Positions 14,536-41,100 of a DNA stretch of 64,000 nt are shown in pieces. The notes below the pieces were generated by a model. That model was given only the letters and a program-made list of their open reading frames with translations. It did not search any database and had not been told where the DNA came from. Both the position numbers and the translations under genes were made by a program. Each line of letters starts with the position of its first letter. Within the stretch, counting starts at the first letter, position 1. The stretch is from contig CAZCZZ010000002.1 of NCBI GenBank assembly GCA_964503335.1, positions 50,164 through 114,163 on the forward strand, given 5' to 3'. The stretch comes from an uncultured Verrucomicrobiota bacterium. GTDB taxonomy: Bacteria > Verrucomicrobiota > Kiritimatiellia > CAIVKH01.

Positions 14536-15122
14536 AGCCCTACCAACCCGGTATCGGGTTGTCTTTCTAGTTATTCCTTACTCGATGTGGCCGGACTTTA
14601 TAGGTTGTGACCTTGAGCAAGGCAAGCCCCTTGTGTGAAAAATCTCGCGAGACCAGGCTTTGGCCCGCCAAGACATAGCAAAAGTGACCCCTACGGAGGC
14701 TGTTCAGGTGGTCGCAGGTGATCGAATGTGCCAAATTCCGACAGATTTTGCGCACTTTGTGTGTAAGATGCTTGTGATAAATGTATTGCGCCAGAAACAC
14801 GAGCGCGAAGGCCATGTTCTCATCATTGAGAAAAGTTAACAACGAATCAATGGAGTACTTTCCCTAATGATCTTTACACTTCGCTCATCGGACCCTATCT
14901 TTAATCTGTAGCGGCACAGGTAGTTCGATTCGGAACAGGCAAGAGGTGTCATTTGCCTGCCGGGGGGTGGAATGTTCACGCATGAGGTGTGTGAAGTTTA
15001 AGTCATTTCCCCTTTCGGCTCAGGTGTCGCGGTGGCGGGGACTATTTGTGGATATGGGTCTTTCCGGTGAGAGCACTGATCGGAAGAGGTCAACGGTGGC
15101 GGGGACGCGGTTGGGGATTCCG

Positions 15123-18100
15123 ATGAGCAGAAACAATTTCAATTGTGCGCGGATCGTGCGCCGAATCCGTACGGCGGTGGTTGCCTTCGCAATGGCTTCT
15201 ACAGTTCTCACCCCCGCATTCGCAGTCACGGTCAACTACTCGCATCGCATCGGCTACTACACCACATTCGCAGGCGGAACTTCAGGCCTCTACAATCACA
15301 GCACAACGAACGAAATTGGTCACTATGCGCAGGGCGATACCGGTCAATCCGTTGGCTGGCGAACGTTCCGCACGGCGGATGGTACCGGTGGGTCCGCGCG
15401 CGAATTGCGGCATGGCGATATTTTCACGATCTCGGTGTTTGGCGATGCCCCTTTTGACGTGCTGGGCATGTCTTTCAATGACGGTGCATCCACAGGTTCA
15501 TGGGCCAATCGTCACAGCAATACGCGCGGCTACGTTCAAACAGGCGCAAACGACGAGAACAACTCGTACGCGAACTGGTACGTGCATCACAACGGGACTG
15601 CCACGGATACGGGCGCGAACCTGGGCGATGAGACGGATGACATCAAGATAGAGATTACCTCCAGCTCGTCCTTCAATGCGCAGGTCGATGGCGGGTCATG
15701 GATCTACAACCTGACGATGCGGAACTCTCCTGGAAATGCGGACCTGGTTGACGGGTATTCGATCTACTACCGGGATGACTGGGATGGTGGCGGGCGGCAA
15801 GATGCGTTCTGGAAGGCGACAACGTCGGTTGAGAACGGCGGCGATGTTCACTTTGGCGGCACGACGGATCTAACGCCGGGCTACATCAACGACGGTCTTG
15901 CCGCGGACAGCACGTCCACAGTCAGCGCGAACAAGCTCTTCAAGTTCGGCTCACATACGCTGACCCTGATCTGGACCAATGACTTCACAGGCAGGGTGCA
16001 GGCCGAGGCGGGCACGCTGAAATTCGGACATGATCGTGCACTCGGCGCGGTTCCCGGATCCGTCCAGGCCAGCAACTTCACCGTTTGGGCCGCCGCGACC
16101 ATCGAAATGACCAACTCGTTTACGATTTCGGCGAACCGTGGGATTCGGATTGAGAACGACGGAAACCCCTCCTTCACCGTCACGCCGTCAGCCTACACGG
16201 TGACCTACGACGGCATCATGACTTCGGATGGCGGTGGCGAGGGCTTCCTCAAGCGCGGTGGTGGTACGCTCCAGCTGGGCGGGAACAACACGTTGGCCGG
16301 TGCGGTCTACATTCTGAATGGAACACTTGCGGTGACGGGAACAGATCCATTCGACACGGCGATTAATGTTGGCGAAACGTCAGGCTCGGACCCCGCCACG
16401 CTCAGTATCGGGAGTGGCTCGACCGTGGTCGACACCACGGTAACGATCCGGGATGGCAGCTCGGGCATCAAGAAAATCGCCGCAACGGAGAGCGGCACCG
16501 TCAGCGGAACGGTGGACTTGCAGGAATCGGACGCCGACAAGATCGAAGTCGACGTGTCCAGCTCCAAGACGCTCACGATCAGCGGCACGATGACGGACAA
16601 TACGGGCGGCGGCGAGGTGACGAAGACCGGGGCGGGAACCTTGGTGTTGTCCAACAGCGGCAACTCCCACGACAAGAAGTTCACCATATCCGCCGGCGTT
16701 CTCAGCATCAGCGCATCTCGCAATCTAGGCGAAGATCCGGGCGGATCCTATGCCGGCAAGGTGACTTTCGCGGGCGGCACGTTGAAGGCGACGGAAACCT
16801 TCACGATGCACGTCAACAATCTTACAACGCTGGACACGGGTGGCGGCACCATCGAAGTGGATTCGACCAAGACGTTGACCTACAACCCGGTGATTTCTGG
16901 CAGCGCAAACCTGACCAAGACCGGCGCCGGCACGCTCACGATGGCCGCAGTGAACACGTATAGCGGCAAGACCATCATCAATGCGGGCACCGTCAACATA
17001 TCGGCTGAAACCGGGCTTGGCGCGAACCCAGGCTCATCCACCGCGGATCAGCTCACGATCAATGGCGGCACACTACAGTCAACGGCGACCCTCACCATCG
17101 ACGACTCCAATCGGGGAGTCACGCTGGGGGCATCCGGTGGCACGATCGATGTGGATTCGGGCACCACGTTGACGTTAACCGATACCATAGCCGGAAGTGG
17201 TGCGTTGACGAAGACGGATGCCGGCCAACTTACGCTCAACAATAGTGGCAACAACACGTATTCCGGCGCCACGACCATAAGCGGCGGTACGGTTCTCATT
17301 GCCAAAGACTCCCATTTGGGTGGTGCGCCCGGTTCGCCCACGGCGGGACACCTCACCATTTCGAGTGGTGCCAAGTTGGAGGTCAATTCGACGGCAGACT
17401 TTTCGATCAGCGCCAATCGCGGCCTCTCCATGGGCTCCGGTGGTGGTGCTATTCGTGTCGCATCAGGGGATACGACGACTTATGACGGCATCATAGCCGG
17501 CAGCGGCGATTTGACCAAAGAACTCGCTGGGACGCTCGTGTTGGGCGGCAATAGCAGCAGCTATTCGGGCAATATAACCGTCTCGAGTGGAACTCTTCAG
17601 ATCGGCAGCCATGGGAATTCATTGGGTGATGCAACGGGAATTACGACGGTGGGCTCTGGCAACACGTTGGCCTTGTCCGGCAGCGGCGTTACAATTCCGG
17701 AACCGATCACGGCACGGGGACTTGGAGCCACCACTGGAATCGGCGCGATCCGCAATATCACGGGAAATAACACGCTCTCCGGGAGGGTCACGGTGAACAC
17801 CACCGCAACCCGCATCAATTCGGATGCAGGAACGCTTACGCTGGATGTTTCCTCCGGCAATGCCCTTGAGTCGACCATGGATCTCACGCTTGGTGGCAGC
17901 GGGAACATCACCATCAATGATCCCCTCACCAATGCTGCGACGAGGACCCTGACCAAGGATGGCACCGGCACGCTCACCCTGAACGGGCTGAATACGTTCA
18001 CCAACCTGGCCACGGTCAGCGCGGGTATCGCGGTGGTGAATGGCAGCAACCCGGCCCCGTTCACGGTTTCGGCGGGTGCCTTTCTGTACGGCACGGGTAT

Positions 18101-21100
18101 CGTCAACACGCTGACTGTGAACGGCCAGATCAGTGGTGGAACGACCTCCAATACGGTCGGACACCTCAAGGCCTCCACAATGACCCTCGCAAACGATGGC
18201 CGCATGCAGGTCAATCTGTCCGCGATGACTGGCACAGCCGGCACGGACTGGGACCTCATCACGGTCGGCGGAGGGTCGGGCACCTACACGGTCAACTCTA
18301 CCGCGGGCGGTGATGAGTTCATCATTGCGCTCAAGGGCAATCCCAGCGGATTCAGCAGTTCGACGGCCTTCACGAACATCATCGTGGATGCCGGGACGGC
18401 GACGAGCTTCGCGACCAACAAGTTCACGGTGGACACGGCTGAATTCACGCCCGCGCTCGGAGGCGGCTCCTTCACCGTCGATGCGGATAGCGGAAACCTT
18501 CGCCTCATCTTCATACCGGGCGTCGCCCCGGATGTGCTGGTGCAGGGCAATGCGACGACGATACCGGACGGCGATGTGGTACCCGACTATGGTGACCACA
18601 CGGACTACGGCGATGTCCTCGTTGACGGCGGAACGTTCTCTCGCACGTTTACGATCACCAACTCGGGGTCAGCTTCGCTCGGCGTAGGCCCCATCACGAC
18701 CAATGCTGTGGGGAATCCCGGCGACTTCATTGTCACATCGCAGCCCGCCGACGCCGTTGCCGTGGGCGGTACCACGACGTTCCAGGTGCAGTTCAATCCG
18801 ACAGCATCCGGCCTGCGCTATACGGAAATCCAGTTCACAAACAACGTCGCCGGCGCGAAGAACCCCTACACATTCTATATCCAGGGTACGGGCACCTATG
18901 TTGAAATCGCCGTGAACGGCAACGGAAACAACATTGCCGATGGATCCACGGCTCCCGCCACATCGAACCACACCGACTTCGGCACCATCGGAACCGCCGG
19001 CGATACGCTTTCGCGAACCTACACCATCACGAACACGGGTAACCGAGCGATGACGCTCGGTAATGTGACGACGAGCGGAACCCATGCGGCCGATTTTATT
19101 GTTACCACGCAGCCTTCCTCGTCGGTTGCCGCGGACGGAAGCACGACCTTTGTGGTGCAGTTCAATCCTTCCGGAAACGGCCTTCGGACGGCGTCGCTCA
19201 GTTTCACGACGACGGACGATGCGGCGAGCGACGGACTCACGGAGAATCCGTTTAACTTCGATGTCCAGGGCACTGGCGCCGGAACCGGCATCTCGAATAT
19301 CCCGACCACGATCACGTTCGAGTCGCTGCTCGGCACGGCGCCGTCGCCGGCGCTTCAGGCGTTCAGCGTGACGAATGTCGGGTTGGGCACGCTGACGTAT
19401 GATCTTTCGACCAATGCCGCCTGGCTATCGGTCAATGCCGTGTCGGGTTCCGCTGCTGCCGGTGCCGGGAACATTCACACAGCCTATGTCGCGCTGGCCG
19501 TCGGCATGACGGCGGGCACATCCAATGCCTTGATCACGACGACGGGGACCGATGGTTTCACGACCAACAGTCCGAAGACCATCGCGGTGACGTGGACACT
19601 CAGTGCGATCACGAACCCGAGTGCGCAAACGGCCACGGCTGACGGCGCCGAGATGGTTCGCCTCGCATGGACGAAGGTGCCCAGTCATGATGTCTTGATC
19701 GTGTACCAGTCCGGTGGAGCGGTATCGACCGATCCGACGCAGGGCACCAGCTACAGCGTGGGCAACACCATCGGATCCGGCACGGTCGTCTATAAGGGAT
19801 CGGGTGCCGCCCTCGAACACATCGTCGCCACCGGTACTGCGCACCACTACAAGTTCTACTCGATCAATAACAATTACTACTCACCCGGCGTGACGGCGAA
19901 TGCGACGACGTTGAGCTACCAGGCGGGTGAGATCGTGGAGCAGTTCAGCTACACAAACACTGTCATCCTTAAGGATCTGAACGGTGGGCAGGGCTTCACG
20001 AATGCATGGTCCCTCAGCGTGCCGAATACGAACACCGATATCGTGGTGGACAGTGTGAATTTCTCAACCTTCCAGTCGTCCTGGCCGACCGAGCGAGGCA
20101 ACCGGATAGTGGTCAAGACTGTGGCTACGACGAACTACCAGGCCTTCCGCGGCATCAACACCGTGAATTGCGGACAGGTCTATATCGCGGCCCTCATCCG
20201 CCGCCAGTTCGATGAGGGCGCGGGCGACAACAAGTTCCAGGTCCTGAGCTTCATGAATGGCTCGACGGAGGTCGCCACAGTCGGCAAGCGAGGCGCCGGC
20301 AATGACCAGTTTGGAACGCGGTCGGGAAGCGATACGGACCTCTATGGCGCGGAGAACTCGTTCATGGACGACATCGATTTCCTTGTCATCGGCCGGTACG
20401 ACTTCGATACGGGCGTGATGTCCGGTATTTTCTATGACAATGCGACCAGTGTTCCGTCCAATGAACCTACCTACCTCGTCTCGTCGACCGATACACCCGT
20501 GAGCCAGATCACGGGCATCCGCATTGCCGCGGGTGCGGCGGTCAACGGTTGGCCCGGCGAATGTCACTTTGACGAAATCCGCGTGGCCCGCAACTGGGGC
20601 GACCTGCTCAAGTTGCTGTCGCCCGTCGTAACTAACTACTCGATTGATGGCGACAACGGTGTAACCGATGGCCAGATGACGAACGGCAGCTACGTTGTGA
20701 GCGTGGACCTCAACACCGCGGCAGGCGTCGATACAGATGGCACGCCCATCGCCACGACATTCGACCTTGTCAATCCGACCGGCACGGCGGTTGTGAACAA
20801 CGACACGTTCGGGTTCTTCACCTATAATTCAGCTTCATCGGTCACGGCGACGGATGTGAATCACGCCATCACTTCGGCGAACAATGCCTTGGGCATCTAC
20901 ACCGTCCGTGTCTCGGCGGTTTCATCCAATGGCGGCCAGATCATCGATAACAGGTTCGTCGGCAATGTCTGCACCGGAACGGTGATGACATTCACGGTGA
21001 CGGATGATGATACCGCAGCGCCTACCTTCGGCGTCTTCACGGCAATGGGTCGCGATATGTCCGGCTCGACCTACACGAGCGATACGTTTGCGGGCGGCTT

Positions 21101-24100
21101 CTGGGTTACCGGCACGGTGACGGATGCATTCAGCGGATTGTTCGCGGCGAGCAATACGTTCACCCTTTCCTACAACGGCGGCGTGGTAAGCAGCGGCGTC
21201 TTCGCGGTCAACTTCTCCGATGGCGGCGCAACGTCGGGCGGGATGGTCAGCAACAACTTCCCACAGGCCCTGATGATTGCGGGCGCCTACACGCTGACGG
21301 TCTTCAGTGTGGACTTCGATGTAGACCGTCCGTCCGACCAGCTCAAGGCCACAAACGTGTTCAGCTTCACCGTGGTGGATCCTGCTCCCGCACCCGGGCT
21401 TGCGGCTGGTCCTCTGACGCTGACGTATAGCGCCATGCTCGGGAGCGACCCCGCATCAACCGCCACGTTTGCCGTCACGAATGTCGGTATCGGTACGCTG
21501 ATGTACACGAACTACCAGACGTACGGCCCCGGCCCGTCGGGTTGGTTCACGGCAAATCCGACCAACAACAGCCTCGCGGCGACGGCGTCGCGAATCCACA
21601 CCGGATGGGTTTACACCGCTTCCTTTACGACATCCGGCACCTATGTGGCGACCAACCGCCTCGCGGGCAATCAGACCAATGCCGCCGTCGAAATCGTGGT
21701 GACGTTGAACGTGACAAATATCCCGGCCCCCACTGCGGTGACAGCGACACCTTCAGGCGCCGAATTCGTGGCCTTGCGCTGGACGGAAGCGTCGGGCCGT
21801 CAGGTCATGATCGTATACGGCCAGACGAATGCGCCGTCGGTCAGCCCGACCAATGGCACAGCCTACGCCGTGGGGAACAGCCTCGGCAGCGGCACTGTCA
21901 TATATAAAGGAACCGCCGCGTACTTCGAACAGGTGGTCGGCCAGGGCACCACGAACTTCTATAACTTCTACACGATCAACAACGACCGCTACTCGCTGGT
22001 CAGCACGGTGGGCGCGACGACGGATGTCTATAAGTCGTACGAGATCGTGGATTCGTTCTCCTACACGAATAGCCTCGCGCTCGACACGCGAAATGGCGGC
22101 AATGGGTTCACCAACGCATGGGGCAATGTTTCCGACAATCCGCGCATCGCGACGCAGCAATTTGCCACGGCGGTCGGATACCCGAGCCTCGCCGGAAATA
22201 CGATGGTGCTGACCAATGGCGCCGCGTTCCGGGGCATTCCCAATACCTCGGCGGGCAAGTTGTATGTCGCGTTCATGCTGCGCCACGGCGATGGAGCCAG
22301 CTACGCGGGCTTGAGCCTCTTCAACGGTGCTTCGGAGGAAATCTTCTTCGGCGAGCATGGCGGAGCGACGAGTGAAGCGGGTATCGACTCCGGAGCCGGC
22401 ACCACGTCACAGGGCGCGAACACGATGCCGGCCAACACGGATTACCTCATCATCGCCCGCTTCGACTTCGGCATCTCGCAGGCCGACATGCTGATCTATA
22501 CCAATGGTGGCGCCACCACGGTTCCCGTCGGTGAACCGGCGACCTGGCACGTCACACGCGCGGATACCATCACGCAGATCAATCGCATCCGCCTCGCTTC
22601 CGGCACGGGCACGCGTTGGGACGAGGTGCGTGTCGCGACAAACTGGGTACATCTCTTCCGCAGGGATGTCTCGTATCCCTTTGTCACCAACCATAGCGTG
22701 AACGCAGGCTCGGATGTCACGGACGCCGCCGTCAAGTCCGGGTCGTTCAATGTGACGCATTACGTACGCGACCTCGCCGGCATTGAGACGACCAACACCA
22801 CGCTGCCGTTCTTCTCGCCGAACTTTGATATTCTCAATACCTCGGGTACAGCGCTGCTGTCCGATGAGGTTTACAACTCATTCACCTATCAGGATTCGGG
22901 CCGGACGGTTGTGGCTTCGGACACAAGCCATGCAGGTGCGTCGCCGGCTAACATCACACTGGGTATCTACACGACCCGCGTCAGCGTCGCGAATTCCAAC
23001 GGACTGACTACGATCGACGTGCGGACGAACAGTGCGGGCGCCTCGCTCACCTTCAACGTGGTGGACGACGACACGACATCACCGCTGCTCGGAAGCGCGG
23101 GTGATTGGGATGTCATCTATAACCTGCCGGATCAGGACACGTCGTCGGGCACGACGTCGACCAACGAATATGCCATCCGCCAGCGCTTCGTGGATCGCAT
23201 CACGGCCTTGGGTTCGGGACACACCGCCTATCTCGCGACCTACACCTTCAGCGCGGCCTCTGCCTGCTGCGGCGGTGCGGGACCGATCATCGACGCACTC
23301 ACGACCGCGCTCGACGCGGGCGCAACAGTCACGATGGTTGTCGACAAGGGCGTGGATACGAATCTGGTCTCGACCGCAGCCACCACAAACAGCATCGGCT
23401 CGCTCGCGCGACGCGGCACGAATCCGCTCATTCTGGTTCAGGATGACTCCGCCTCCGGCATCATGCACAACAAGCTCGGCCTCTTTGACTACGGGTCGGG
23501 CAACAAGCGTGTCCTTGTCGCGTCATGGAATATGACCGGCGCGGCCAGCAGCCAGCAGTGGAACATCCTGCTCGATGCAAAGAGCGACACGATGTACGCG
23601 GCGTACCTGTCCGAGTTCACGGAGCTCGTGGCGGGCCGCTTCCATGACGATCCCGCCAAATCCCATGCGCACGATTCGACCACCTTCTCGATCGGCGGAT
23701 CGTGGGGTGCCAACTACGTCCGATTTGCACCTTTCACGAACAGCGCCACGGGCGCCAACAATGCGCAGAGGGACATCACCAACTTCATACACTCGGCGAC
23801 CGGGCAGATCGTCTTTGCGCTGAACAAGCTGACACGCATGACCATCGCCAGTCAGCTGGTTGCGCGCTGCGACGCGGGTGTCATGGTGGACGGCGTCATG
23901 CCGAGGAGCGACACGGACGTCGGCGGCGACTCGGCTTCGGTCTACAGCTATCTGACGAACACGGCCAACTACGCGACGACGAATCGCGTCCGCATGCATA
24001 CCGCCTACGCGGAAGCCGACTACTCGGCCTCGGACTCCGGCGAGACGGATCTTGTTCACGCCAAGTACATGATCATCGATCCGATCTCCGCGAGCCCCGT

Positions 24101-27100
24101 CGTCATCCATGGATCGGCGAACTGGACGTTCTCGGCCCTGCAGGAAACCAACCTGAACGACGAAAACATCGCCTTCCTGCGTCACGCCGGCATTGCCCTG
24201 CGCTTCCTGCAGAACTTCCAGCGGATCACGGACCGGCTGACCAACCTGACCGCCTCCGTCCAGGACGAGTCGGCCTCGGTCAGCATCGGAACGAACGGGC
24301 TTGTCAAGACCGGGAATGGGACGAACAGCACGTGGGCGACAACGGACGGCGCGCTTGCCGGTGTGGCCACCAACAATAGGCTCCGTATCAGCCTGAACAT
24401 CTACGACGTGGACAGCGGCCTGTCGCGGAACGCGTCGGAATCCGACAAGGCTACAAACACCACGCTGACGGTCGCAAACTATACGACGGACAACGTGACC
24501 AATCTGAGCCTGTCCACCAGCAGCGCGGGCACAACGACGATCACCTCGACCAGCGTCTGGGAGATGGTATCCGTCTCATCGGCCTCGATCGGCTCGCTCT
24601 TCACAGGCGTCAGCAACCTGATCAGTGCGAATATCGTCGACGCGGACGATGATCGCGCCAGCGACCAGAAGACCAATGTCAACCAGCGCTTCGGCTTCCT
24701 GTATGTCATCGACGACGACACGAACCGGCCGGTTCTAAGCGGTTTCACGGGCCAGGGCAGGCAGCTGGATACCGGAACCTTCACGAATACGGAACTGCTC
24801 AGCGGCTTGGTCATCACGGGTCTCGTGACGGACGTGGGCAGCGGCGTCTATGCGGGCACGAGCAATACGCTCACGCTCTCGCGCGACGGATCCGTGATCT
24901 TCACGACCAACTTCGTGGCCGGTTTCTCGGACGGCGGCGCCACTGCGGGTGGCTCGCTCTCCAACACGATCGCCTATGCGCTCGTTTCGTCCGCCGGCGC
25001 CTACACCGCGACGGTCTTCAGCGCCGACTACGACATCGACCGCTCCGGAGACTCCCTTACGACGAACGGCGTATTCAGCTTCACGATCGTGGAGGCGGTC
25101 GCGCCCGGCCTCGGCGTCGGCCCCCTGACGCTCACCTACAACGCGATGCTCGGCAGCGATCCGTCCACCGCGACATTCGCGGTAACGAACATCGGTCTCG
25201 GCACGCTGCAGTATACAAACTACCAGACCTACGGGCCCGGCCCGTCCGGCTGGTTCAGCGCGAACCTCACGAACAGCAGCCTTGCGGCAACGGCATCCCG
25301 CATCCACACCGGCTGGGTCAGCAGCGCATCCTTCACGACGTCCGGAACGTACGTGGCCACGAACCGTGTCGCGGGCAACCAGACCAACAGCGCGCAGGAA
25401 ATCGTGGTCACGTTGATTGTCACGAACATCCCGAGCCCGACCTCTGTCTCGGCGACCAACGATGGCGCCGAGTTGATGCGCATCAACGCGGCGGAAGCCG
25501 CGGGACGCACCGTCCTCGTCGTTCACAGCTACACGAATGCACTGACCGTGAATCCGACCAACGGAACGGCCTATGCCGTGGGCGATCTGCTCGGCAACGG
25601 ACGAGTCATCTTCTCGTTCATCGGCTCATCCACCGTCTCCAACCTGTCGCATGTCGTCGTGCCGGGTTCGACGAACTTCTATACGCTCTTCACGGTCAAC
25701 AACAGCCGCTACTCGACGAGTGTCACCGCGGGAGTCACGGCCGAGGTTTACAGGACCGAGATCTACGAGCAGTTCGGCTACACCAACGGGGTGACGCTTG
25801 ACGGCCTTGCCGGCGGAACGGGCTGGACCAATTCCTGGATCGAAAGCAATGCAGGTGCCTACACCGTCAGCGACGGCTCCTTCACGGAACAGGCGGGCTA
25901 CCCGACGGAACGTGGCCGCCAGATCAGTGTGAATCCTCCGAGCGTCAATTCGCGCACGGCACGGCGCCACTTCCCGGCGGTCACGAACGGCGTAATCTAC
26001 ATGGCCTTCTACGTGAGATACGACTTCGGAGAGGCCGGTGGCGGCGGCGACCAGAAGTATGTCGGCGCGAGCTTCATGGACGGAACCACCTCGAAACTGT
26101 TCTTCGGCGAAGTCAGCTCCCTCGACGCGGCCGCCGGTATTGACCCGCTCGGCAACGGCTCTGGTGTGAACAGCGGCGCCAACTCGATGCAGCCCGATGT
26201 CGACTACCTCGTCATCGGTCGCTACACCTTCAGCTCGAAGATCGCCCGCTTCCTGATCTACACGAACGGCGGTTCCTTCGCGGTTCCTTCGGGCGAGCCG
26301 TCCGCATGGGCGAAGACCACGACGCTGACCACGGCGATCGCCAGCATTGATGGCATCCGCTTCAATGCGGGCGCGACATCGGTCGGGACGCCCGGCACAT
26401 CGCTCTTTGACGAAGTGCGCGTCGCGACGAACTGGGTCGACCTCGTCCGCGGCACACGCACCTATCCCGTAGTCACGAACTTTGCCGTTGCGGGTAGCAC
26501 CAACGTCAGTGACTCGCAGGTCGCGGCTGGCACGTTCAGCGTCGCGATGGATATCTACGACGACAAGGGTGTCAACACGACCAACACGCAATTCACGTAT
26601 TTTGCGCCGAACTACGACATCTGGAACTCGGCGGGCATCCAGATCATCACGGACCGGGTCTTCTCGAGCTTCTTCTACACGAACAGCGGCGACACCGTAC
26701 TCGCCTCGAACACGACCCATGCGACGGTCGCAGCAGCCGGCGTCACCATCGGTATCTACACGTCCCGCTACAGCGCGATCAACTCGAACGGACTGTCGTC
26801 CATCGACCTGACCACGCTGTCCAACGGCACGGTCATGACCTTCAACGTGTTCGATGACGATACGAACGCGCCGTTCTCGACAGCCATGGACATCCCGACA
26901 GGCCTTGCCTCGACCAACCTGACTCCGGGCGATATTGCGATCATCGGGTTCAGTTCGGACGGCAGCGGCGGACTCGCGTTCGTGCCGCTGGTGAATGTTC
27001 CCGGCAGCATGACGTTCAATTTCGATGACGACGGCACCGTGGGCAGCGGCTTCCTGGCCTACACGTCGCCGGCTGCGGGTCTCTCGGCAGGTACGGTGGT

Positions 27101-30100
27101 TGTGATCACAAACACAGATGCCGCAGGCACGGCGGTTGTCGTGGGCGGTGGCGGAGTGGGCCGCAGCGGCACGTACGACCTGAACAATACCACGGAAGGT
27201 ATCCTGGTCTGGGAGGGCGCGAACACGAGCGCCGTCTATTATCTGCGGCGCGACGGCACGACGACCTACTCTGGCCTATCCGTGGGAGCCGGAACGATCG
27301 CCGACATGATCCAGAACCTGGACAACGGCGGCTACACGAACCTCAATCGGACCCTCTCGCAGTCCGGCCAGCTCTCGGCCATTGCCTCATCCAACAACTG
27401 GATCTTTACGGATGGCACGGGTGACCAGTCACAGGACTACAATGCGGCGCCGTACACCAACGGATACACGCTCACGGGTAATCGTATCACCCGCCGCCTT
27501 GAGGCATCCTATCTGCAAGTCGGCGGATGGAGCTTCACGGGCCTCGTCCGCGATACGAGCAGTGGCGTGAACAGCAATGGAGTCGTGGTCAGCGAGGCGA
27601 ACAACAACATCTCGCCGAACTTTACCGTCTACAACAGCACCGGCACGGTGATCATCACGACCCAGCCGTTCATCCAGATTCCGGCGGATGGCTCCGGTAT
27701 CACCACGGGTGCGCCAGTCGGCTCTGCCAGCGTGACCAACACCGTGGCTTCGGGGAGCCTGCCCGACGGCGTGTACACGGCGATCGTGTATGTGGCCGAC
27801 AACGATGAGGACCGGACGGGTGATCGTATCGTCGCGACAAACGTCTACACCTTCCAGGTTATCCCGCAGCAGAACCCGGCCCTGGCGGTGGGTCCGCTCG
27901 TTCTGAACTACCATACAATGCTGGGCAACAACGCCACGCAACAGACCTTTGCGGTAACCAATGTGGGCGGTGGTGTGCTGTCCTACACGAACTATCAGAC
28001 CTACGGTCCCGGCCCGTCCGGCTGGTTCGCCGCGAACCTGACCAACAGCAGCCTGGCATCCTCGCTTTCCCGAATCCACACGGGCTACGTGAACAGCGCG
28101 TCGTTCACGACTTCGGGAACGTTTGTCGCCACGAACCGTGTCGCGGGCAACCAGACCAACAGCGCGCAGGAAATCGTGGTGACGGTTGTTGTGTCGAACA
28201 TCCCGAGTCCGACTGCTGCATCCGCAGTGAAGGACGGTGGCCAGATGGTCCGGTTGGAATGGACCGAGGCCTCCGGTCGACAGGTTCTCATCGTCCATGG
28301 CAGCCCGGCGGCAACCACGATCGATCCGACCAATGGCACGGCGTACGCCGCCGGTGACGCGCTCGACGGCGGTACCGTGATCGCGAAAGTCACGGGCAGC
28401 GGAAAGCTCGAGCACATCGTTTCGCAGGGATCGACGAACTTCTACCGGTTCTACACGATCAACAACGACCGCTACTCCACGAGCACGCTGGCGGGCGCTA
28501 CGACGGATGTCTACCAGGCGTTCGAGATCGTGGACCAGTTCGCCTACACGAACGCGACGAGCCTGGATACCCGCAACGGCGGACAGGGCTTCACGAGCAC
28601 GTGGAGCGTGTCCTATGGAACGCTCACAACGGTCAGCAACAATCCGTTCACCTCGACCTCAGGCTATCCCACGAAGGGTGGCAACGTGGTCACGGCGGCG
28701 CCGACCACGCGCGTGTTCCGGGGAATACCCCAGGTCACTGCGGGCCGCGTCTATGCAGCGTTCAACTTCCGCACGGAGGATGGCGGGGCATCCAGGTTCG
28801 CGGGCATGAGCTTCTATGACGGCACAAATACCGAGGAGAAGTTCATCGGCGAAGGCTTTACGCAGGCCAACCTTCTGACCGTGGGCGGAACCACCGGCCC
28901 GACGCCACACGAGATTGCCAACAACACGCACTACACGATCATTGCGATGTACGACTTCGAAAACGACAAGGCATACGCGCTTCTCTACACGAATGGCGTC
29001 GAGACCATTCCGAACGGAGAGCCCGAGGTGTGGGATGTCGAAGACAGCGACTCCACGGTATCGCGCATAACGCACATCCGCCTCGACGGCGATGTCGGCT
29101 ACATGATTGACGAGCTGCGCGTGGCCACCAACTGGCCCAACCTCTTCGCCCGTACTGCGACGTATCCCGCGGTCACGAACTTCATCGTAAATGGCGGATC
29201 AAGCGTTACGGATGCCCTCCTCACGAGCGGCGTGTTCAACGTCGTGGCTCATATTCGCGACACGTCAGGCGTGTCGACGAGCACGTTGGGACGGTTCTTC
29301 AAGCCCAACTTCGACATCATGAACCCTACGGGCACACAGATCCTGACGAATGAGACGTTTGAGACGTTCGGTGTGCTGGATAGCCAGCGGACGTTGATTG
29401 TGACGGATACGGTCCACGCCGTCGTGGCACCGGAAGGCGTGACCCTGGGCGTCTATACCGGCCGGGTATCAGCTATCAACTCAAACGGCGTCGAAACCGT
29501 CAATGTCACGACGCAGGCCAACGGCACCGCACTGACGTTCACGGTCATTGACGACGACGCAACCGGCCCCGAGATGGCGACGATCACCTCGACCAACACG
29601 GGCGGCGGTTCGCTCCGGTTCCTGCATGTGTCAATCGGCGCGGACAACGTATCCGGCAATGGCGCGGCATCGAACAGTATCCAGTACTCGACGACCGACG
29701 CCGCCCTGACCAATCTGTCGTCCGGCAACCCGCTGCTCTTCTGGATGGGTGCGCGCGACGACAACGGCATCTATCGCGGCAATACCGACGCGGCGACAAA
29801 CTCCTGGTTGAGCGTCGGATCCGCCATCATCAGCAATGTGCTGAATTACGATGCCACGCGAAGCGATCCCATGGCGTCCACGGTCAATGCCAAGGCAACC
29901 AACGTCTGGAGCTGGATCACGCCGCTGACCGTGACGGAAATCCAGAACCTCGTCACGAACACGGCCAACGTAGGATCGAACGCTGTCGTAGCCACGTGGC
30001 GCGATGCCGATGCCGATCGTCCTTCCGACTCATCGGCATCTGTCTACACGCAGGGCTGGTTGCGGGTGACCGATGACGACGTGGCAGGGCCGACAATCCA

Positions 30101-33100
30101 GAACATCAACATCTATGGCCTCGACGGCTCCTACACCGTCCGCGTGGACGAACTGACGTCTGCCTTCGGCTGGTCCATCACGGGCCGCATCAGTGACGCC
30201 AGCGGTATCAATGTGAACTCGAACTCGACGACGCAGTTGAACAACTCACCGTACTTCGAATTGTGGGATCCGAACGGCAATCTGAAGCTGACGGAGGCAT
30301 TCGATACGCTGGCCTTCTCCGATGGCGGCGCGACCACGCTTTCCGCCTTTGCCGACACCAATCGCACGGCGCTCGGCGGCGTGGTCACCGGCGTGTGGAC
30401 GGCGCGCGTCATTGCGGCAGATAATGATGAGGATTGGGGTAACAACGATCACTCCGTGAGTACACAAGAGGTGGCATTCACCGTGGTGCCCGGCGCATCG
30501 CTCGGCGGCATCGCCCGCGCACCGGCGACTTTCAATATCACGTCGTCCTACAATGTGGTTACAGGTTCGGGGACATGGCCGACGTACTACGTCACGAACG
30601 TCGGCTCCGGCACGCTGAACTACTCGAACCATGTCACGTATAGCTCTGCATCCGGCTGGCTGACCGTGAACGCGACAAATGTCACCTTGATCGGAACGGG
30701 TACGACCACGAACCACGCCATCAGCGTCGATCCGACCCACCTGAACCCCGGCTCATACTCCGCGACGATCACGCTCAATGGCGACCAGACCAACGCAGCG
30801 CAGACTGTCACAGTCAACATCACGGTCTTTGGCTACTACGTGCGTGAAATCGTGGAACCGGCCACGAATGCCGCCGGAACTCTCCACAACAAATACGGCG
30901 GCACAGGGTGGACGGGTAACTGGTCCAACAACCCGTCTTCCGGTTACTCGTATGTCGCGACGAATGGAAGTTTGTCCGTGCCTGCCAACTATCCGTCGGC
31001 GGCCGGCGGCTACATCCGTGGCGATACGACATCGGGCGAGTTGCAATCATTCCGCACCTTCCCGACCTTCAGCACGGGCAAGCTCTTCGTCGCGGCAGCG
31101 ATCAACAAGAACGCAAACAACACCGACGGATTCATCGGCATATCGCTCATGGATGGCAGCACCGAAGCCGGCTTCTTCGGCAAGGGCTTCGGTACGGCGA
31201 ACTTCGTGATTGATGGCACCAACGGCCCCACGTCGAGCGGATTCGGCATCCACCAGTCCACCTACCTGATCGTCGGCTACTACGACTTCGACACAGACAT
31301 CTTCCGTGCCCGCGCGTGGAATCCGGGTGATACGCTGCCGGTTACAGAACCGACCGCATGGTCGTCGGCCAGCAATGGAAACTACACGATCTCCCAGGTG
31401 ACGGGCATCCGCCTTGGCGCCTCCGGCGTCACCAATGCCATCTTTGATGAAGTGCGTGTCGCGGCCACATGGGAAGAGCTTCTCAACATCTACTCCAACG
31501 AGCCATCCGCCCACGCGACCGGCCTGAACTTCAACAACGTGACGACCGGATCCATGGTGGTCGGCTGGACATCAGGCAACGGCGCCAATCGCATTGTCGT
31601 GGCTCGCGAAGGCGCGGCGGTTACGTTCTCGCCCACGGACAATGTGGCCTACGCGTTCAGCACGAACTGGACGACGGCCACGGACATCGGTGGCGGCAAC
31701 AAGGTCGTATTCAACGGCTCGGGCACGAACTTCAACTTCGTCGGCCTGACGCCCGGCACGCAGTACTGCTTCAGGGTGTTCGAATACAATGGCGCGGGAT
31801 CCACGGCCAACTACCTGACCAACGGAACTGCTCTGGCGGGATGCCGCTGGACGCTGACGACGGAACCGGCCGAGCAGCCGACGAGCTTCAACGCCTACCA
31901 GGTTTCGAACACCCAGATCAGCAATACCTGGGTCGCTGCCGGCGGGTCACCCGCTGCCGATGGGTACGTCATCTTCCGCCGCCGCCATGAGGATCCGACC
32001 AACGTCCCCGTGGACGGCGTCGCCTACACGAACCTGGAGTTGCTCGGCACCTCGCGCATCCTCGTGGTAACGCCGGGCAGCGCGACGACGTTGCTCCACA
32101 CGAACCTGGATAATTGCACCGAGTATCGATTCCGCATCTTCTCGTTCCGTCGCGATACGGCATCGGGCGAAACCTACAACTACAAGACGGATTCGTTCCC
32201 GAGCGCGACGAATTCGACGGCTTGCGACGCGCCGACGATCCAGTCGAGTAACATCGTGTTCAACTCGATCAGCTCAACGGACATGACGATCTCGTGGAGC
32301 AACGGCAGCGGCAGCAATCACCTTGTCGTCGTCCGCGGCACGAACGCCGTGAATGTGGATCCGACGGACGGTGTGAGCTACACGGCCAACCCGATCTTCG
32401 GCAGCGGCTCTCACCTCGGCAGCGGCAACTACGTTCTCTACAACGGCACTGGAGCCACGCTGAATGTCAGCGGACTCGCGACCGGTGTGACGTATCACTT
32501 CCGCATCTACGACTACTTCGGTTCGGGCGGCGGCGAGAACTACAACACCAACACGGCGAACGACAACCCGGCGAGCGCTGCCACCGTGTCGTTCTCTATC
32601 GCCCAGGACACGTTCAGCCGTACGAATACGGCGACGGGCCAGATTACGGATGAAGGTCGCTCCTCGGGCGGCAGCGGCTGGTCCAACAACTGGTCACAGG
32701 CCTTCTCCGTGGAAATCCAGCACAATGCGAATTTCTCGTCGTTCAAGTGCTACCCGCGCAGCACGTCGAACGGGCAGGTCCGGATGATCTCCGATGCGTT
32801 CAAGCATACGGCCTCGCGTGGTTTTGCCCCGCGCACTAGCGGCAAGATCTACGCCGCCTGGGTCATGCAATATGGTTCCGGCGGCTCGGGCAAGTATTCC
32901 GGGTTGTCGTTCATGAACGGGACCGTCGAAACAGGCTTTGTCGGCAAGGCGAACGGCAATACGACAAATGCCCTCTCATTCCAGTCCGGTCCCACGGAGT
33001 ACGCCAGCTCGTACATCATGAACCCGGGCTCGGCATATCTGATCGTCGCGCGTTACGACTTCGAGAATAAGACCTTGGTGGCCATGGGCATGACGCAGTC

Positions 33101-36100
33101 TTACATCCAGTCGTACGAGCCCGACGCCTCGGCGCAAGGATGGGATGTCGTGGCCACAAACATCACGATCGACCAGATCACGGGCATCATGCTGCACAAG
33201 CAGGATTCCGGCGATGTGTACTTCGACGAAGTGCGCATCGGCTCGACATGGGAATCGGTCATGCTGTGCGACTACGGCGCAACGTATAATCCCGGCCCGA
33301 CGCCCAGCCTGATCTTCATCGGCACAAATTACGTCATTGGCGCGTCCGCCATTGTGACGAACCTATCGGACGCTGAACTGAAGGAATCCTCGGGCGTCGA
33401 CTTTGCCGTGAAGTGGGAAGACACGCACGGTGTCTATACGACGAACCGCAACGCCCTGGGATCGAGCAACTTTGTATCGAATACGGGACGCATCCTGCCG
33501 AACTGGGACCCGCTGGCCGTCGGCGCCACGACCAACCAGTTCGGTTTGGACCGCTACTTCTACGCGACGAACATCATCGGTATGTCCGGCGCACAAAGCG
33601 TTACGACCTACGTCCGGAATGCATTCAGCATCACGAACATCGACTTCTCCAGCGCATACTTCGTGACGCTCAGCGCCGAGGACGACCGCCAGGTCGGCTG
33701 CAGCGTGACCGCGACATACGGCGAAGACGTGAACTGCTCGCGCGGAATGACCATCAACACCGCGCTGCAGTTCTATGTGTATGACGACGATACGGTGGGC
33801 CCGATCGTGGGCACCTCGCCGCTGAAGGTTATGACCAATGCCACGGTCGTGAGCTCCCAGACCGCGGGCACTGTCGACCGGTTCTTCCTGATCGACGGTG
33901 TCGTGACCCAGACCGGCATGCGCGTCGCCGTAAGCATCTCGGACGGCTACAGCGGAATCCAGCGTGCCTCTGCCGGCACGGCCGACACAAATATGAATCT
34001 TACGATCGCCTCGCTGACCACGAGCAACATCGCCAACTACTCGTCGTCGCTCAGCTCGTCCAGTTCCGTGCTGCCCGACTCGACCAGCGTGTGGGAATTC
34101 GCCTCCTCGATGTTCACGTACAGTTCTGTGTCCGCCATGTGGGGCGGCGACGGCACGGCGGTCCAGGGCCAGGACTTGAACGTGACTGTGAGTTCCCCGG
34201 ACGTGGATAATGATCGCTCGGCGGACGCCGCATGGACCAGCAACCAGGTCGTGGGCATTGTCCGCGTGATCGATGACGATGAAGCGTCGCCCTACCAGAC
34301 CAACATCACGTATGGCGGTGCTTCGCTTGCCACCCGCTCGTTCTGGGTCGCAACGAACGGGGTGCGTCTCCAGGGCAGCGTCAGCGGCAAGGAGCGCAAC
34401 GAGAACACCGGCACCGACACGGTTTGGACCGTTACCGATGACGAAATGTTGAATGCGGGAACCAAGGCCCTGACATTTGCCTTCGGCGCCGCCGACCTCA
34501 ACAGTGGCATCGCGCGAGGCACCTCGGGCTCGGCCGCGTCACTGATGCATATCAGCATCTGGACGAACTGGCTCAATGATTTCAGCAATTACAACGCATC
34601 GGCCAGCTCTCCGAATGCCGCCGGCGCGACGCGCCTTACGAACGTGTGGGCGTTTGGAGATGCGACGTTCGCAGAGGATGATGTAACCACCTTCTTCTCG
34701 GGTGGAGATATGCCTGTCTATGTGACCATCCCCGATGCGGACAACGATCGCACGAACGATATCTCGACGCTCACGTCGAACCTCGTCGGCTATCTGGCCG
34801 TTGTGGATGACGATGTCGAGGCCTATGGCTTCACGAACCTAACCTTCAACGGACGCCTGGCCAACCTGATCGCGCAGGGCTTCGAAAACAACGAGGGCTG
34901 GTCGAACACGGCGTCGTCCAGCTACCAGACAAGGGATTCGGCTGTCGTGGATGGCACGTGGCACTTGGAGAGCGTGGCGGCCAATCAGCTCCACGAGCAG
35001 GCCAGCAGGACACGCAAGCTGCAATTCCAGACGGGATCGTACCTTGTCCTGCCTCCACGCAATGACCCCGGCACGTTGTTCTTCTGGGCTCGTGGCAGCG
35101 CCGGTGGCCAGACGAACTTCATGACCGTCGACTACTGGCCTGCAGGCAGTTCCACCTGGATCAACTGCGGCTTCACGAACGGCATCACGGGCACGAACTA
35201 CATGCAGACCTCGTTCCCGATCGACTACGTGGGCAATGCGGTGACCGTGCGCGTCTATGCGTCGCAGATCAACAATACGGCCCTCTACCTGGACGACCTC
35301 TCGCTTACGCGGACCCTGTACTGGACCAATGAGGCAACCGTCGCGTTGACATGGCAGAATCCGACCGCGGATTACTCGGGCATTCTCCAGTTCCGCTACA
35401 CCAATGCCGCGACGGCAATCCCGTCGACGGTTACGAGCGGTGTCGCGTCGGCGACCAACAGCGCATCGTTTGCCTCGACGGCTGAAGGCATCGTCACGGG
35501 CTACGTCTTCATGGTGGACAGCGATGCGGACCGCAACAACGACAGCACGAAGGGCATGAGCGTTCCGTATGTCACGAAGATCGACCTGACGCCGCCGCCG
35601 CGCATCTCCGGCTTCACCGGAACAAACGGACTTGATGACACGTCGGAAATCGACCTCGACTGGTCGGCCGACGCGAACTCCCCGCGCGCGGCCGGATGGC
35701 GTGCAAGCGACAGCTCCGCCCTGTCACCGTGGCACACGTACCGCATCTATTACACGGATGGCGCAACCGGTCCGACGACCAACAGCACCTATCTGGACCT
35801 GACGAGCTCCTATCCTGAACTGGCGACGAACATCACGGCATCCATCACGATGTCGAACCTGCTGCCTGGTTCCGACTACCGCATCGCCATCGCGGGCGTC
35901 GATCGCGCCGGCAACATCGGGAACCTGTCGGATACCGCCGTAGTGTCCGTGGCCAACTTCGTCGTCACACAAGGTATCGTGACGGTTAGCGCCATCACCA
36001 ACGTCGACATCTCGTGGACCGCCACGAATTCCGCCGGCCAGATCCTCAAGGACTACGACGCGATCTACTACGATTCGACGAGCGGTCACTCGGACAACTC

Positions 36101-37307: not shown

Positions 37308-38180
37308 GTGATGACCAGATCTGGGCTCAATTTATTGCCGGGGTGTATCGTTTTACTTGGCTCGCTGTTTGCAGGCTTTGTAGAGGCGCAGGATTTTCCT
37401 CTCTACGTCGCATCGAAGTATGTCATCGAGGATGAGGATGATCAGCCACTTCGGGGACTCGATCCAGCGGGAGAGGCCCTTGGACTCCCGAGGGAGAAGG
37501 GTGCCGTCGTTCAAATCCTCGGCGCAAGCGCCGGAATCTTCCCGCCCAATGCCGACGGTTCGCCCAATCTGCAGAATCCCTTGCTGGGCACTACACGTAC
37601 TGGCATCGGTGCCGCTCTTTCGCTCTCTGCGCGCGGTCGATTTGGCGCGACCGTTGTGCCCCGACCCACAACGCCTGTATTCGTCCGCGTATTTAATGGG
37701 CCGGAACTCGCGCTTGCGACGCGTTATGGCGATTCCCAGACCTTTGTGAGCGTGGACAACACGCCGTTTCTCGCCGACATCGAGGAGACGGGCGCTGCAT
37801 TTGCGACGGACAGCGATGGCGACGGACTGAACAACTACTACGAGGGCCTGCTCGGCTCAAACGCCAACCTGACCGACAGCGATGGCGACGGCGTGGCGGA
37901 CGGAGACGAGTACCGCGCTGGCTCTGGAATCGCCAACCCCTCCTCGTTCCTCGGCATCACCACGTTGAAGAAGGAAGCTTCCGGTTTCTGGACCATCGGT
38001 TGGGAATCCTCGACCGGGCGCACCTACTGCGTCGAATACAGCGGAATCGGCCTCTGCCAGGGACCAATCTACTCGATGGTCTGTCCCATGGTCACCGCTA
38101 CGAGCACCACGACCACCGTCCAGGCATCGATCCCCGGATCCGGCGGCGACGGCCATTTCCGCGTGAGGTTGATGGAATGA
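37308..38180 (+). CDS. Small secreted protein (290 aa) with a signal peptide and a dockerin-like double Ca2+-loop C-terminal module. Its stop overlaps the start of the downstream giant gene.
   Basis: N-terminal 'LNLLPGCIVLLGSLFAGFVEA' signal peptide; 'DSDGDGLNNYYEGLLGSNANLTDSDGDGVADGDEY' double loop. The TGA at 38178-38180 overlaps the ATG at 38177-38179. Confidence 0.7.
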   Translation: MMTRSGLNLLPGCIVLLGSLFAGFVEAQDFPLYVASKYVIEDEDDQPLRGLDPAGEALGLPREKGAVVQILGASAGIFPPNADGSPNLQNPLLGTTRTGIGAALSLSARGRFGATVVPRPTTPVFVRVFNGPELALATRYGDSQTFVSVDNTPFLADIEETGAAFATDSDGDGLNNYYEGLLGSNANLTDSDGDGVADGDEYRAGSGIANPSSFLGITTLKKEASGFWTIGWESSTGRTYCVEYSGIGLCQGPIYSMVCPMVTATSTTTTVQASIPGSGGDGHFRVRLME

Positions 38181-41100
38181 TTTCTCGTGATTCCCAAGCA
38201 GATGAAACGCGCGGACTTGGGGTTGAATATCCAATCCGGTGGAGCATAAATGTGGCTATAGAACCCAGATCGGATCGTCATGCCCGATCCACGTGCCTGC
38301 GACAAAGAGGATGGGCGACACATTCCGCGCTTCGCGTCGCGGCGCTCGCCACGGTCCTGACGGGGTCCGTCAGTCATGCAGAATTGCTGCTGGGGTTCGA
38401 TCTGCTGGGTCAAGGCGGTTCTCAAGTAACGACTACCAACACGGTTGCTGCAGCGAACATCTCGACGGCAGCGCCTAATGCCCGAATCACGAGGGGTTCG
38501 GGGCTTCAGTCAAGCACGGCAAGTGATTCCATGTCGTCCAGCAGCTGGACTTTGCCTGGGGCTGCCACGGTTGCGAATGCCATTACCAGTAATGACTATT
38601 TTACGGTGAGAGTGGTTCCTGAAGCGGGTTATCTTATCGACGTTACCAACTTCTCGTGGAGAACAACGCGAAGCGGGACAGGACCGACCAACTACAACCT
38701 TCGCGCCGGCAACGACGGTTTCGCGTCTGATATAGCGACTTGGCTCAACAAGGGTACTACGTCCAACTTCGTGACCACTGTCAACATTACCGGCTCCACA
38801 GGCGTGGAGTTCAGAATCTACGGCTACAGCACCCACAACAACGGCGGTACTGCACGAATCGCTCATGGTGCCGATTTTGGTCAATCGGGAATCGACTTGG
38901 CCATATTTGGCACGGTGAATGCGTCAGGTCCGGATGTTGGAGTCCTGGGTAATAACACGCTGGTCGCTGACGGCGACACTACGCCCGCCTATGCGGATCA
39001 TACCGATTTCGGAAACGTCGGACTCAATCAATCCAATCTGGTCCGTACTTTCACGATCACAAACAGTGGAACGGCTTCGTTGGGGGTTGGTAACATTACG
39101 ACGTCCGGAACTCATGCAGCGGACTTCATTGTGATCGCTCAGCCCTCGAACGCTCTTGCGGCTGGCACCATCTCCACCTTCCAAGTGCGCTTCGATCCGT
39201 CGGCCACCGGCACCCGCACCGCGACGATCCAGTTCACGAATGATGCAGCCGGCAAGTCACCCTACGACTTTGTCGTCCAGGGCACTGGCGTTGCTGCGGG
39301 TATCCTTCGCAGTCCGACGTCGATCACCGTCACGACGATGGTGGGCACAGCGCTCGGGACATCCAGCTTCGGGGTTACGAATGTCGGCCTCGGTCGCCTC
39401 GACTACACGATTTCGACAAACGCCGCGTGGCTCTCCGTATCGCCGACCTCAGCCAATCTCGCGGAAACGGGAGGGCAGCAGGAGACGATCACCTATAGCG
39501 TGACAGGACTCTCCGGCGGCACGTCCAACGCGACGGTCACGATCACGGATTCCAACGCATCCAACAGCCCGCAGACCGTCAGCGTCTCTCTCGTGCTCAC
39601 CAACATTCCCGATCCCACGGCGCAGAGTGCAACGGGTGATGGCAAGGAGATGATGCGGCTTGCGTGGACCAAGCACAGCTCCTTCAACGTGATGATTGTC
39701 TACCAGCTCGGCAGCGCCCCGGCCTCGCCCCAGCAGGGAACAGCCTACAGCGTGGGCGACAGCGTCTCCGGCGGCGGCACGGTCGTCTACAGCGGCACGG
39801 GTGCCACCCTTGAGCACGTCGTGCGGACCAATGCAACGCACTACTACGCGTTCTACTCGATCAACAATAACCACTACTCGCCGGGCGTCTCCGCGAACGC
39901 GGCCACGCCGGCTTATGGCGACGGGGAGATCGTGGACGCCATCGCGTACACCAACGGTGTGACAATCAACGGGGTGAACGGCGGCAACGGCTGGACCAGC
40001 GCGTGGTCCGTCGGTTCCGGCACGTGGACTGCGGAAACGTCCTCGCTGACCGTCGAAACCAACTACCCGACCGAGTATGCCAACCGCATCCGCGTGGCCG
40101 ATCCGGGCAACGGCGGCCAACCCTATGCGACGCGCAAATTCGCAGCACAGTCAAGCGGCACGCTCTATATGGCAGCTATCGTCAGCTACCAGTATCAGGG
40201 CCCGTGGAAGTTCGCTGGCTTCTCCTTTGTCTCGAATGCCACCGAGAAGGTCTTCATCGGCAAGATCCCGAACAGCGAGAACAACCGCTTCGGCTTGACG
40301 TCCACGCGGAATGCGACGGATTACAAGACGTCCGGCGTGACCCTTGGCGACTTCAACACCAGCACCGGCAACGTGTACCTGATGATCGGCACGTATGACT
40401 TCAGCACGCGCGACTTCAAGGCCAAGGTCTATCTGCGCACCACCGTCGTGCCCGAGACGGAACCGGGATCGTGGGATGTGGCGACCAATCTGCCCGCCAA
40501 TTACGCCAACAGCATCGACGGTATCCGGCTTGCATCCGGCGCATTGGGTGCTCCCGATGGAAGCATCGGCCAGACCCTTTATGACGAAATTCGCGTCGCC
40601 ACCAACTGGGCCGGCTTGCTGCGCATCGTGGCCGAACCGGAAATCGCCGTGCTGGGAACGAACAATGCCGTGGTGACGTCGGGCGATGCCTCGCCGGCGA
40701 CAGCGGATGGCACCGACTTCGGAAACGTTAACTTTGCCGGCAGTGTGAGTTTCACCAACGTCTTCTCGATCACGAATTCCGGCAACGCCAACCTCGTGCT
40801 CACCAGCATCAGCACAAGCAGCGCCATGGGCGCGAGCGCGGACTTTACGGTGATCTCGTGGCCGACGACCGTCCTGGCGGGAACGCGGTCGAATCTTGTC
40901 ATCGCCTTCAACCCTGAAACCACGGGCCTGCGCACCGCGCTTGTCAGCATCGCAAACAACGACTCCGACGAGAATCCTTACACCTTCGTCGTGCAGGGCA
41001 CAGGCACCGGCTATTTCGAGACCATCACGTTCCAGGGCTTCGAGGGATCGGGTACCGACACCTGGAATTACCTGTTCGTTTCAAACAACCCCGGAACGGA

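Follow-up and report, generated by a model that had tools for sequence, protein, structure and literature searches.

A probable HKD phosphodiesterase embedded as a conserved cassette in a giant PATR-repeat protein of a Kiritimatiellia-like bacterium

The window analysed here, a stretch of 64,000 nucleotides from contig CAZCZZ010000002.1 of an uncultured Verrucomicrobiota bacterium, contains a giant gene whose product carries, far from either end, a two-lobe HKD catalytic domain of the phospholipase D (PLD) superfamily. The embedded domain is complete and probably a catalytically active phosphodiesterase. The reading we favour, to which we give a joint probability of roughly 0.45, is that this enzyme, most probably acting on extracellular nucleic acid, is fixed as a module–PLD–module cassette in the shaft of a Sec-exported protein of ~7,300 aa bearing passenger-associated transport repeats (PATR). 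The features on which the argument rests are the following (positions are those of the window; aa, amino acids of the giant protein).

14946..37031, plus strand: giant gene, maximal open reading frame (ORF) of 7361 aa, a single open frame without interruption.
15123-15224 (aa 60-93), plus strand: likely Sec signal peptide MSRNNFNCARIVRRIRTAVVAFAMASTVLTPAFA, judged by eye.
15930..18250 (limits approximate), plus strand: beta-helix-type PATR region (PF12951, E 3.6e-29, 6 stretches).
22653..23084, plus strand: upstream flanking module, aa 2570-2713, ending in DDDTTSP, found at the same position in other giant PLD proteins.
23100..24236, plus strand: two-lobe HKD / PLD-superfamily catalytic domain, aa 2719-3097, delimited by alignment to free-standing homologues.
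23466..23489, plus strand: HKD motif 1, HNKLGLFD, with His2841 and Lys2843; H and K invariant in 40 homologues.
23520-23531, plus strand: ASWN, equivalent of the first-lobe GSxN motif; the family consensus there is GSWN.
24057-24080, plus strand: HKD motif 2, HAKYMIID, with His3038, Lys3040 and Asp3045; H, K and D invariant in 40 homologues.
24111-24125, plus strand: GSANW, aa 3056-3060; G, N and W invariant in 40 homologues.
24237..24731, plus strand: downstream flanking module(s), aa 3098-3262, reading YDVDSGLSR ... DADDDR ... DDDTNRP, colinear with L018/P0124 and other giants.

A first-pass annotation of this DNA had reported intact HKD motifs and a GSANW motif at 23130-24250, inside a repeat protein of about 7.3 thousand residues. 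Translation gives the quoted motifs exactly, and the catalytic domain lies in frame within the single 7361-aa ORF (an identical public database protein, P0121, is 7311 aa long and starts at the GTG at 15096). The PATR repeats it had named are likewise recovered by Pfam. The pattern H.K....D has only two matches in the 7361 residues, and the Pfam profile PLDc_2 (PF13091) covers both lobes in 2 stretches, with a score of 94.9 bits where the cut-off is 27 (E 4.6e-27). An AlphaFold2 model of the domain, built with 40 homologues, adopts the pseudo-dimeric alpha/beta PLD fold with a mean pLDDT of 93.7 and a pTM of 0.93; the profile match in both lobes and the confidence of this model together exclude a chance resemblance. 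With two HxK(x)4D motifs, an above-threshold profile, a two-lobe fold and a GSxN-type motif in each lobe, the domain is a member of the PLD superfamily, and all 49 family-invariant columns are retained in it.

Most relatives of the domain are free-standing enzymes. Searching 5.8 billion proteins by word index gave 135 matches, the best 120 of which are 354-537 aa long, contain PLDc_2 alone and share 44-60% identity with the query at a coverage of at least 88% (96-99% in all but a few). Overall, ~130 of 142 close relatives are free-standing secreted proteins of ~480 aa from metagenome-assembled genomes (MAGs) of Kiritimatiellia, Lentisphaerae and Verrucomicrobia; the few relatives that are named among the matches listed come from Lentisphaerae, Kiritimatiellia, Spartobacteria and Verrucomicrobia MAGs. 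These proteins share a common layout, consisting of a signal peptide, a catalytic domain that begins at 'DW.V.[YF]N.PDQ', and a C-terminal tail of ~70 aa, of the pattern 'W..W..RFYR', that ends in 'RF[YF]R...P'. The window copy starts exactly at the mature N-terminus and stops before the tail, its own signal peptide and tail being absent, and the giant protein therefore holds the catalytic core of an enzyme that is secreted elsewhere in the family. With 44-59% identity over 96-98% of the query, the window domain is, by sequence though not by architecture, a member of a secreted double-HKD family (P0001-P0120) specific to the Planctomycetes–Verrucomicrobia–Chlamydiae (PVC) group. The gene neighbourhoods of four free-standing homologues consist of housekeeping genes that vary between loci, and gave no functional clue.

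As a separate observation, a short C-terminal tail with conserved Trp residues, ending in RF[YF]R[VA], is common to the free-standing PLDs, to the TSP3 partner proteins described below and to multi-domain PLDs (carriers include P0002, P0013 and L004). Neither Pfam nor NCBIfam recognises this tail, which may be a module for sorting or retention peculiar to the lineage.

The first-pass annotation had also held that PLD enzymes are normally free-standing. This describes most relatives well, but the embedded form is not unique to the window protein. When 1.84 billion cluster representatives were searched exhaustively with phmmer, the family proved to be small (362 matches at E<=1e-3, of which 55 reach <=1e-10 and 39 reach <=1e-30), and 11 of the 39 clusters at E<=1e-30 have the embedded form, in proteins of 750-8,000 aa. 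The domain is internal in P0122 (1760 aa), P0123 (3960), P0124 (7987), P0125 (748), P0126 (5781), P0129 (4578), P0130 (6069), P0131 (1324), P0132 (3973) and P0153 (1383). The named embedded proteins belong to Kiritimatiellia, Tichowtungia and 'Verrucomicrobia' MAGs, and P0126 is annotated automatically by NCBI as a 'phospholipase D-like domain-containing protein' (the Pfam content of whole giants was taken from precomputed lists). A scan of species-representative genomes, with a best match of 53%, placed 14 of 16 loci in the free-standing class and two, L004 and L018, in the embedded class. The ORF of L018, which exceeds 6531 aa, is the same gene as P0124, and is 43% identical to the window protein over 836 aa, across the PLD domain and both of its flanks.

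An alignment of five giants (P0121, P0123, P0124, P0126 and P0130) shows the module–PLD–module cassette in all of them. Their pairwise identity is highest in the PLD block, at 0.46-0.49 versus 0.23-0.37 elsewhere, which points to purifying selection acting on a functional enzyme. The profiles of GC content and skew across the domain are uniform, with no trace of a recent insertion. In a neighbour-joining tree of the PLD domains, calculated without bootstrap, the embedded copies are spread over at least five groups, with two groups of giants basal; as the tree has no bootstrap and the flanks are shared by the five giants, we draw no conclusion on whether fusion or fission came first, although the shared flanks argue against many independent captures. 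Taken with the clusters above, the embedding is a real, lineage-typical and recurrent arrangement, shared by a dozen related uncultured PVC bacteria, and not a one-off. The DDDT modules that the first-pass annotation had placed on both sides of the domain are also real and conserved; its description of them as cadherin-like is unsupported, since no Pfam cadherin was found at E<=0.01 and no cadherin sequence in the PDB at E<=10. The upstream module received no family assignment, and neither flank has a solved-structure match by sequence.

A compact version of the displayed enzyme is seen at 8798-14833 of L004, a Tichowtungia sp. MAG, where the PLD domain forms part of a protein of ~2000 aa, alongside cadherin/He_PIG-like repeats, two lamin-tail domains, a TSP3 repeat and an FYRV tail, together with repeated units of ~120 aa that lack a known function. 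For experiments this protein is a better target than the one of 7,300 aa.

How such a protein might work can be outlined by analogy. In the reading we favour, the host would be a Kiritimatiellia-like PVC bacterium, and the giant protein would form a long array of beta-rich modules that holds the enzyme out from the cell, with the PLD domain in line between two conserved modules. As in the HKD superfamily at large, catalysis would need no metal and would take two steps: His2841 or His3038 would attack the phosphodiester to give a phospho-histidine intermediate, and the other histidine would protonate the leaving group and then activate water, while Lys2843, Lys3040 and the asparagines of the GSxN motifs would grip the phosphate. 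The purpose may be scavenging of phosphorus or other nutrients from extracellular nucleic acid, or remodelling of the matrix. A tethered enzyme would stay close to the cell, and so would its products; the free-standing relatives might instead be retained through their common C-terminal tail. Export and surface display are suggested only by the signal peptide, recognised by eye, and by the PATR repeats, which weighs against this reading, as does the failure of Pfam and NCBIfam to detect an anchor, translocator or sorting domain in the giant protein.

With regard to the substrate, extracellular nucleic acid appears the most probable candidate, at slightly less than even odds. Compared with solved sequences, the family profile reaches only Zucchini/MitoPLD, Nuc and NucT, and the identity of the individual lobes peaks with Nuc, at 27%. 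NCBIfam returned only weak NucT matches, plus DISARM DrmC for P0002, and no match to cardiolipin synthase or phosphatidylserine synthase. The closest whole-domain folds are the compact PLDs, namely SpPLD (7E0M) and PLD3/4, the latter being 5' exonucleases. The authors of the SpPLD structure describe nuclease-like loops, charge and GS motifs and leave its substrate unsettled (PMC8004604). Lamin-tail domains (LTDs) stand beside the PLD domain in six multi-domain relatives, and among 60 more distant secreted relatives an LTD occurs in 12, an OB-fold nucleic-acid-binding domain in 2 and type IX secretion (T9SS) sorting tails in 30. The LTD serves ExeM, an extracellular nuclease, as an accessory, and its bacterial occurrences are mainly alongside membrane-associated phosphoesterases (PMC6085458); it has also been noted in a large nuclease-domain protein of 'DNA-degradation loci' in marine-sediment bacteria (PMC8289736). 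The proximity of Nuc, NucT, Zucchini and DrmC, the GS/GS motifs, the folds of SpPLD and PLD3/4, and the lamin-tail domains of relatives together lead us to favour a nuclease-like enzyme.

Several observations pull the other way. The domain is acidic, with a pI of 5.3 (embedded copies 4.3-5.9; median of the free-standing proteins 5.8), and such a charge is unusual for a non-specific DNA binder. Neither an LTD nor an OB domain was found in the window protein with Pfam and a local LTD profile, the NucT score of 26.1 bits compares with a family cut-off of 297, and the top structural match is deposited as a phospholipase. In addition, the neighbourhoods of the four free-standing homologues show no linkage to nucleoside uptake, 5'-nucleotidase or the Pho regulon, and the endonuclease/exonuclease/phosphatase (EEP) domain in the adjacent giant protein has its nearest relative in sphingomyelinase C rather than in ExeM/NucH, which hints at lipid head-group chemistry. 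The analysis of charge and conserved residues does not separate the candidate substrates.

Among the alternatives, the strongest is that the domain is a tethered phospholipase D that acts on the membrane lipids of other cells or vesicles, in contact-dependent lysis or to harvest lipid phosphate, together with the sphingomyelinase-like EEP of the adjacent giant. The acidity of the domain speaks for it, as does the phospholipase name of the best structural match, and an EEP of this kind in the adjacent giant gene fits a lipid-directed locus; set against the nuclease families that lie nearest in sequence, we regard it as a serious but unlikely competitor. Less likely again is a phosphodiesterase directed at some other anionic extracellular polymer, such as polyol phosphates of the teichoic-acid type, phosphodiester-linked capsular or phosphoglycan polysaccharides, or polyphosphate: it would suit a bacterium that lives by degrading polymers, as the giant gene with glycoside hydrolases in the same locus suggests, but the closest sequence families are nucleases, and no specific alternative substrate is positively supported. 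It is very improbable that the domain is a non-catalytic PLD-fold module, serving in binding or adhesion to phosphate-containing ligands or as a structural spacer. Inactive PLD folds typically lose their catalytic His, Lys, Asp or GSxN residues, whereas here 40 homologues and the five giants all keep both histidines, both lysines, the Asp of the second lobe and the GSxN residues, and the PLD domain is the most conserved block of these proteins. Finally, although giant repetitive genes misassemble readily and a look-up of the exact product P0121 gave no contig on record, an assembly or gene-calling artefact (a chimeric contig joining a free-standing PLD gene to repeat-protein fragments) can be dismissed for practical purposes, because the window copy is continuous in frame with its flanks and has neither the signal peptide nor the tail of the free-standing genes, L018, an independent MAG, and at least four further giants of separate origin show the PLD domain and flanks in colinear order, and both the conservation of the PLD block and the uniform GC profile argue against it.

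The domain also differs from each of the known systems with which it might be grouped. Nuc of Salmonella plasmid pKM101, NucT of Helicobacter and Zucchini/MitoPLD are free-standing homodimers of single-HKD subunits of ~150-200 aa, whereas the window domain carries both lobes in one embedded chain of 379 aa, and the relation is at the level of the clade only; since two HKD motifs lie in one chain and the score is below the cut-off, the domain is not Nuc or NucT proper. SpPLD of Serratia plymuthica and mammalian PLD3/PLD4 are compact two-lobe PLDs as well, but their identity to the window domain is 14-16%, with no match at the sequence level, and they are free-standing or, in the case of PLD3/4, membrane-anchored and lysosomal. 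The first-pass annotation had left the domain's family open among Nuc, PLD, Tle5 and other HKD families. The profile search reached Nuc, NucT and Zucchini and lent no support to Tle5; the toxin ancestry of Tle type that it had raised is not supported. What it observed is confirmed, and its interpretation holds in part. Tle5/PldA effectors of the type VI secretion system (T6SS) are double-HKD PLD enzymes too, used against other cells, but their match is more distant and the locus has no T6SS context, which rules out an effector of this type.

In concept the arrangement resembles ExeM/NucH (LTD, OB and EEP domains), likewise a surface-held nuclease/phosphoesterase (PMC6085458), and of its accessories the LTD and, rarely, the OB domain occur in the relatives of the window PLD. 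The catalytic fold of ExeM/NucH is the metal-dependent EEP and that of the window domain HKD, and the 7361-aa protein has neither an EEP, LTD or OB domain (Pfam, LTD profile and EEP search) nor an ExeM/NucH match in NCBIfam; as the fold differs, the window protein is not an ExeM/NucH nuclease but at most a functional analogue. Closer in general build are the giant PVC surface proteins with catalytic domains, which are likewise very long, repeat-rich and exported, with internal enzymes, and which two reports discuss as weapons or cellulosome-like structures (10.1101/2023.11.21.568195; PMC12057145). The West-Roberts et al. 2023 preprint yielded no relevant passage on phospholipase, nuclease or Kiritimatiell*, and literature searches turned up no PLD/HKD cassette in a giant surface protein and no relevant secreted HKD nuclease. 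A looser likeness exists to MARTX toxins and to RTX adhesins with internal effector or ligand modules, but the window protein has no RTX, CPD or type I secretion (T1SS) features. A classical autotransporter would combine PATR passenger repeats with a C-terminal beta-barrel translocator domain; PATR repeats are present here, and the C-terminus gave no match to a translocator family in Pfam or NCBIfam.

If the enzyme is active, this protein and about ten other giants would be, as far as we could find, the first HKD phosphodiesterases displayed in line on a bacterial surface fibre, and the paired free-standing and embedded versions would offer a natural experiment on the benefit of tethering an exo-enzyme. 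The family may be relevant to the turnover of extracellular DNA or phospholipid, and hence to the recycling of phosphorus, by the largely uncultured Kiritimatiellia and Lentisphaerae, and its 379-aa domain should provide an easily expressed handle on the function of the opaque giant PVC proteins. No new chemistry or principle is implied, because the literature already contains general accounts of enzyme domains in giant surface proteins of PVC bacteria.

The neighbourhood of the giant PLD gene comprises further large genes and a small conserved one.

2663-11122, plus strand: third giant ORF, 2819 aa long (an independent assembly gives about 2670 aa), with GH13, GH57 and TSP3.
37308..38180, plus strand: conserved partner gene of ~290 aa, with a signal peptide, an 'LFVRVFN' domain, TSP3 repeats and a 'W..W..G.FRVRL' tail.
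38531..55474, plus strand: adjacent giant gene, 5647-5824 aa (5647 aa in an independent assembly), with an embedded EEP.
About 41945-42484, plus strand: EEP (Exo_endo_phos) domain of the adjacent giant, preceded by Calx-beta; nearest to bacterial sphingomyelinase C.

The EEP assignment rests on matches to 2ddr (4.9e-6) and to TIGR03395 (2.4e-6), both sphingomyelinase C, and not to ExeM/NucH or Xth. The third giant contains an alpha-amylase (GH13) segment at aa 42-128, GH57 at aa 2072-2260 and the TSP3 repeat, so that three consecutive giant genes in the window carry a different hydrolase each (GH13/GH57, PLD and EEP). Homologues of the partner gene, at 32-35% identity, lie beside giant PLD genes in three unrelated assemblies (copies at 37308-38180 of the window, 9100-9996 and 28734-29687 of L026, and 7642-8508 of L025), and its TSP3 protein of ~290 aa may be a partner or anchor protein. 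At 31863-36359 of L025, downstream of P0126 (Kiritimatiellia, 5781 aa), PilM_2 and Secretin genes are followed by a gene for a Laminin_G_3 protein of 3358 aa, and in the window the ORF at 55504-58197 has two Calx-beta domains and a faint match to the pilus-like system protein Amuc_1099. The giant proteins may be linked to a secretin- or pilus-type export system.

A far bolder combination, which we consider improbable, is that Kiritimatiellia-like bacteria deploy one set of exo-enzymes in two interchangeable ways, either as small exports with a lineage-specific 'W..W..FYRV' tail at the C-terminus or as cassettes spliced into PATR fibres of several thousand residues, and that the three giants (GH13/GH57, PLD and EEP) and the TSP3 partner would form a covalent 'digestive fibre' for contact attack on the envelope, DNA and storage polymers of other cells. 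If true, this would be a previously unrecognised predatory or necrotrophic organelle.

Some further observations concern the remainder of the giant protein, most of whose 7,361 residues have no Pfam annotation at E<=0.01. An insert of ~195 aa (aa 3976-4170; 26871-27455) containing LTPGDIAIIGFSSDGSGGLAFVPLVNVPG directly follows a module end that reads DDDTNAP, and is thus placed just as the PLD domain is after DDDTTSP; neither Pfam nor NCBIfam recognises this insert, and the other giant PLD proteins compared contain nothing homologous to it. Six repeated segments (at aa 1876, 2559, 3822, 4722, 5501 and 6094) are marked by a motif of the form D[ED][VIL]R[VI][AG], in most cases with (T)NW after it. 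At E<=0.01, Pfam recognises neither these segments nor the intervening BACON-like and Fn3-like modules, and a self-BLAST of the protein returned no module definition. Overlapping ORFs at 23523-24185 (minus strand), 23032-23535 and 23702-24379 (both plus strand) were discounted as high-GC artefacts, because the frame supported by homology is that of the giant ORF.

The last 296 aa (36141-37028), which end in 'PGRNINP', form a C-terminal domain conserved among giants that may be the site of an anchoring or secretion signal. It has only two database homologues, both fragmentary, and its AlphaFold2 model is beta-rich but too poor for use (pLDDT 43.5). At about 36030-36200 of the window, the segment MRFYRVAVTNTW is a further instance of the Trp-containing C-terminal tail of the relatives.

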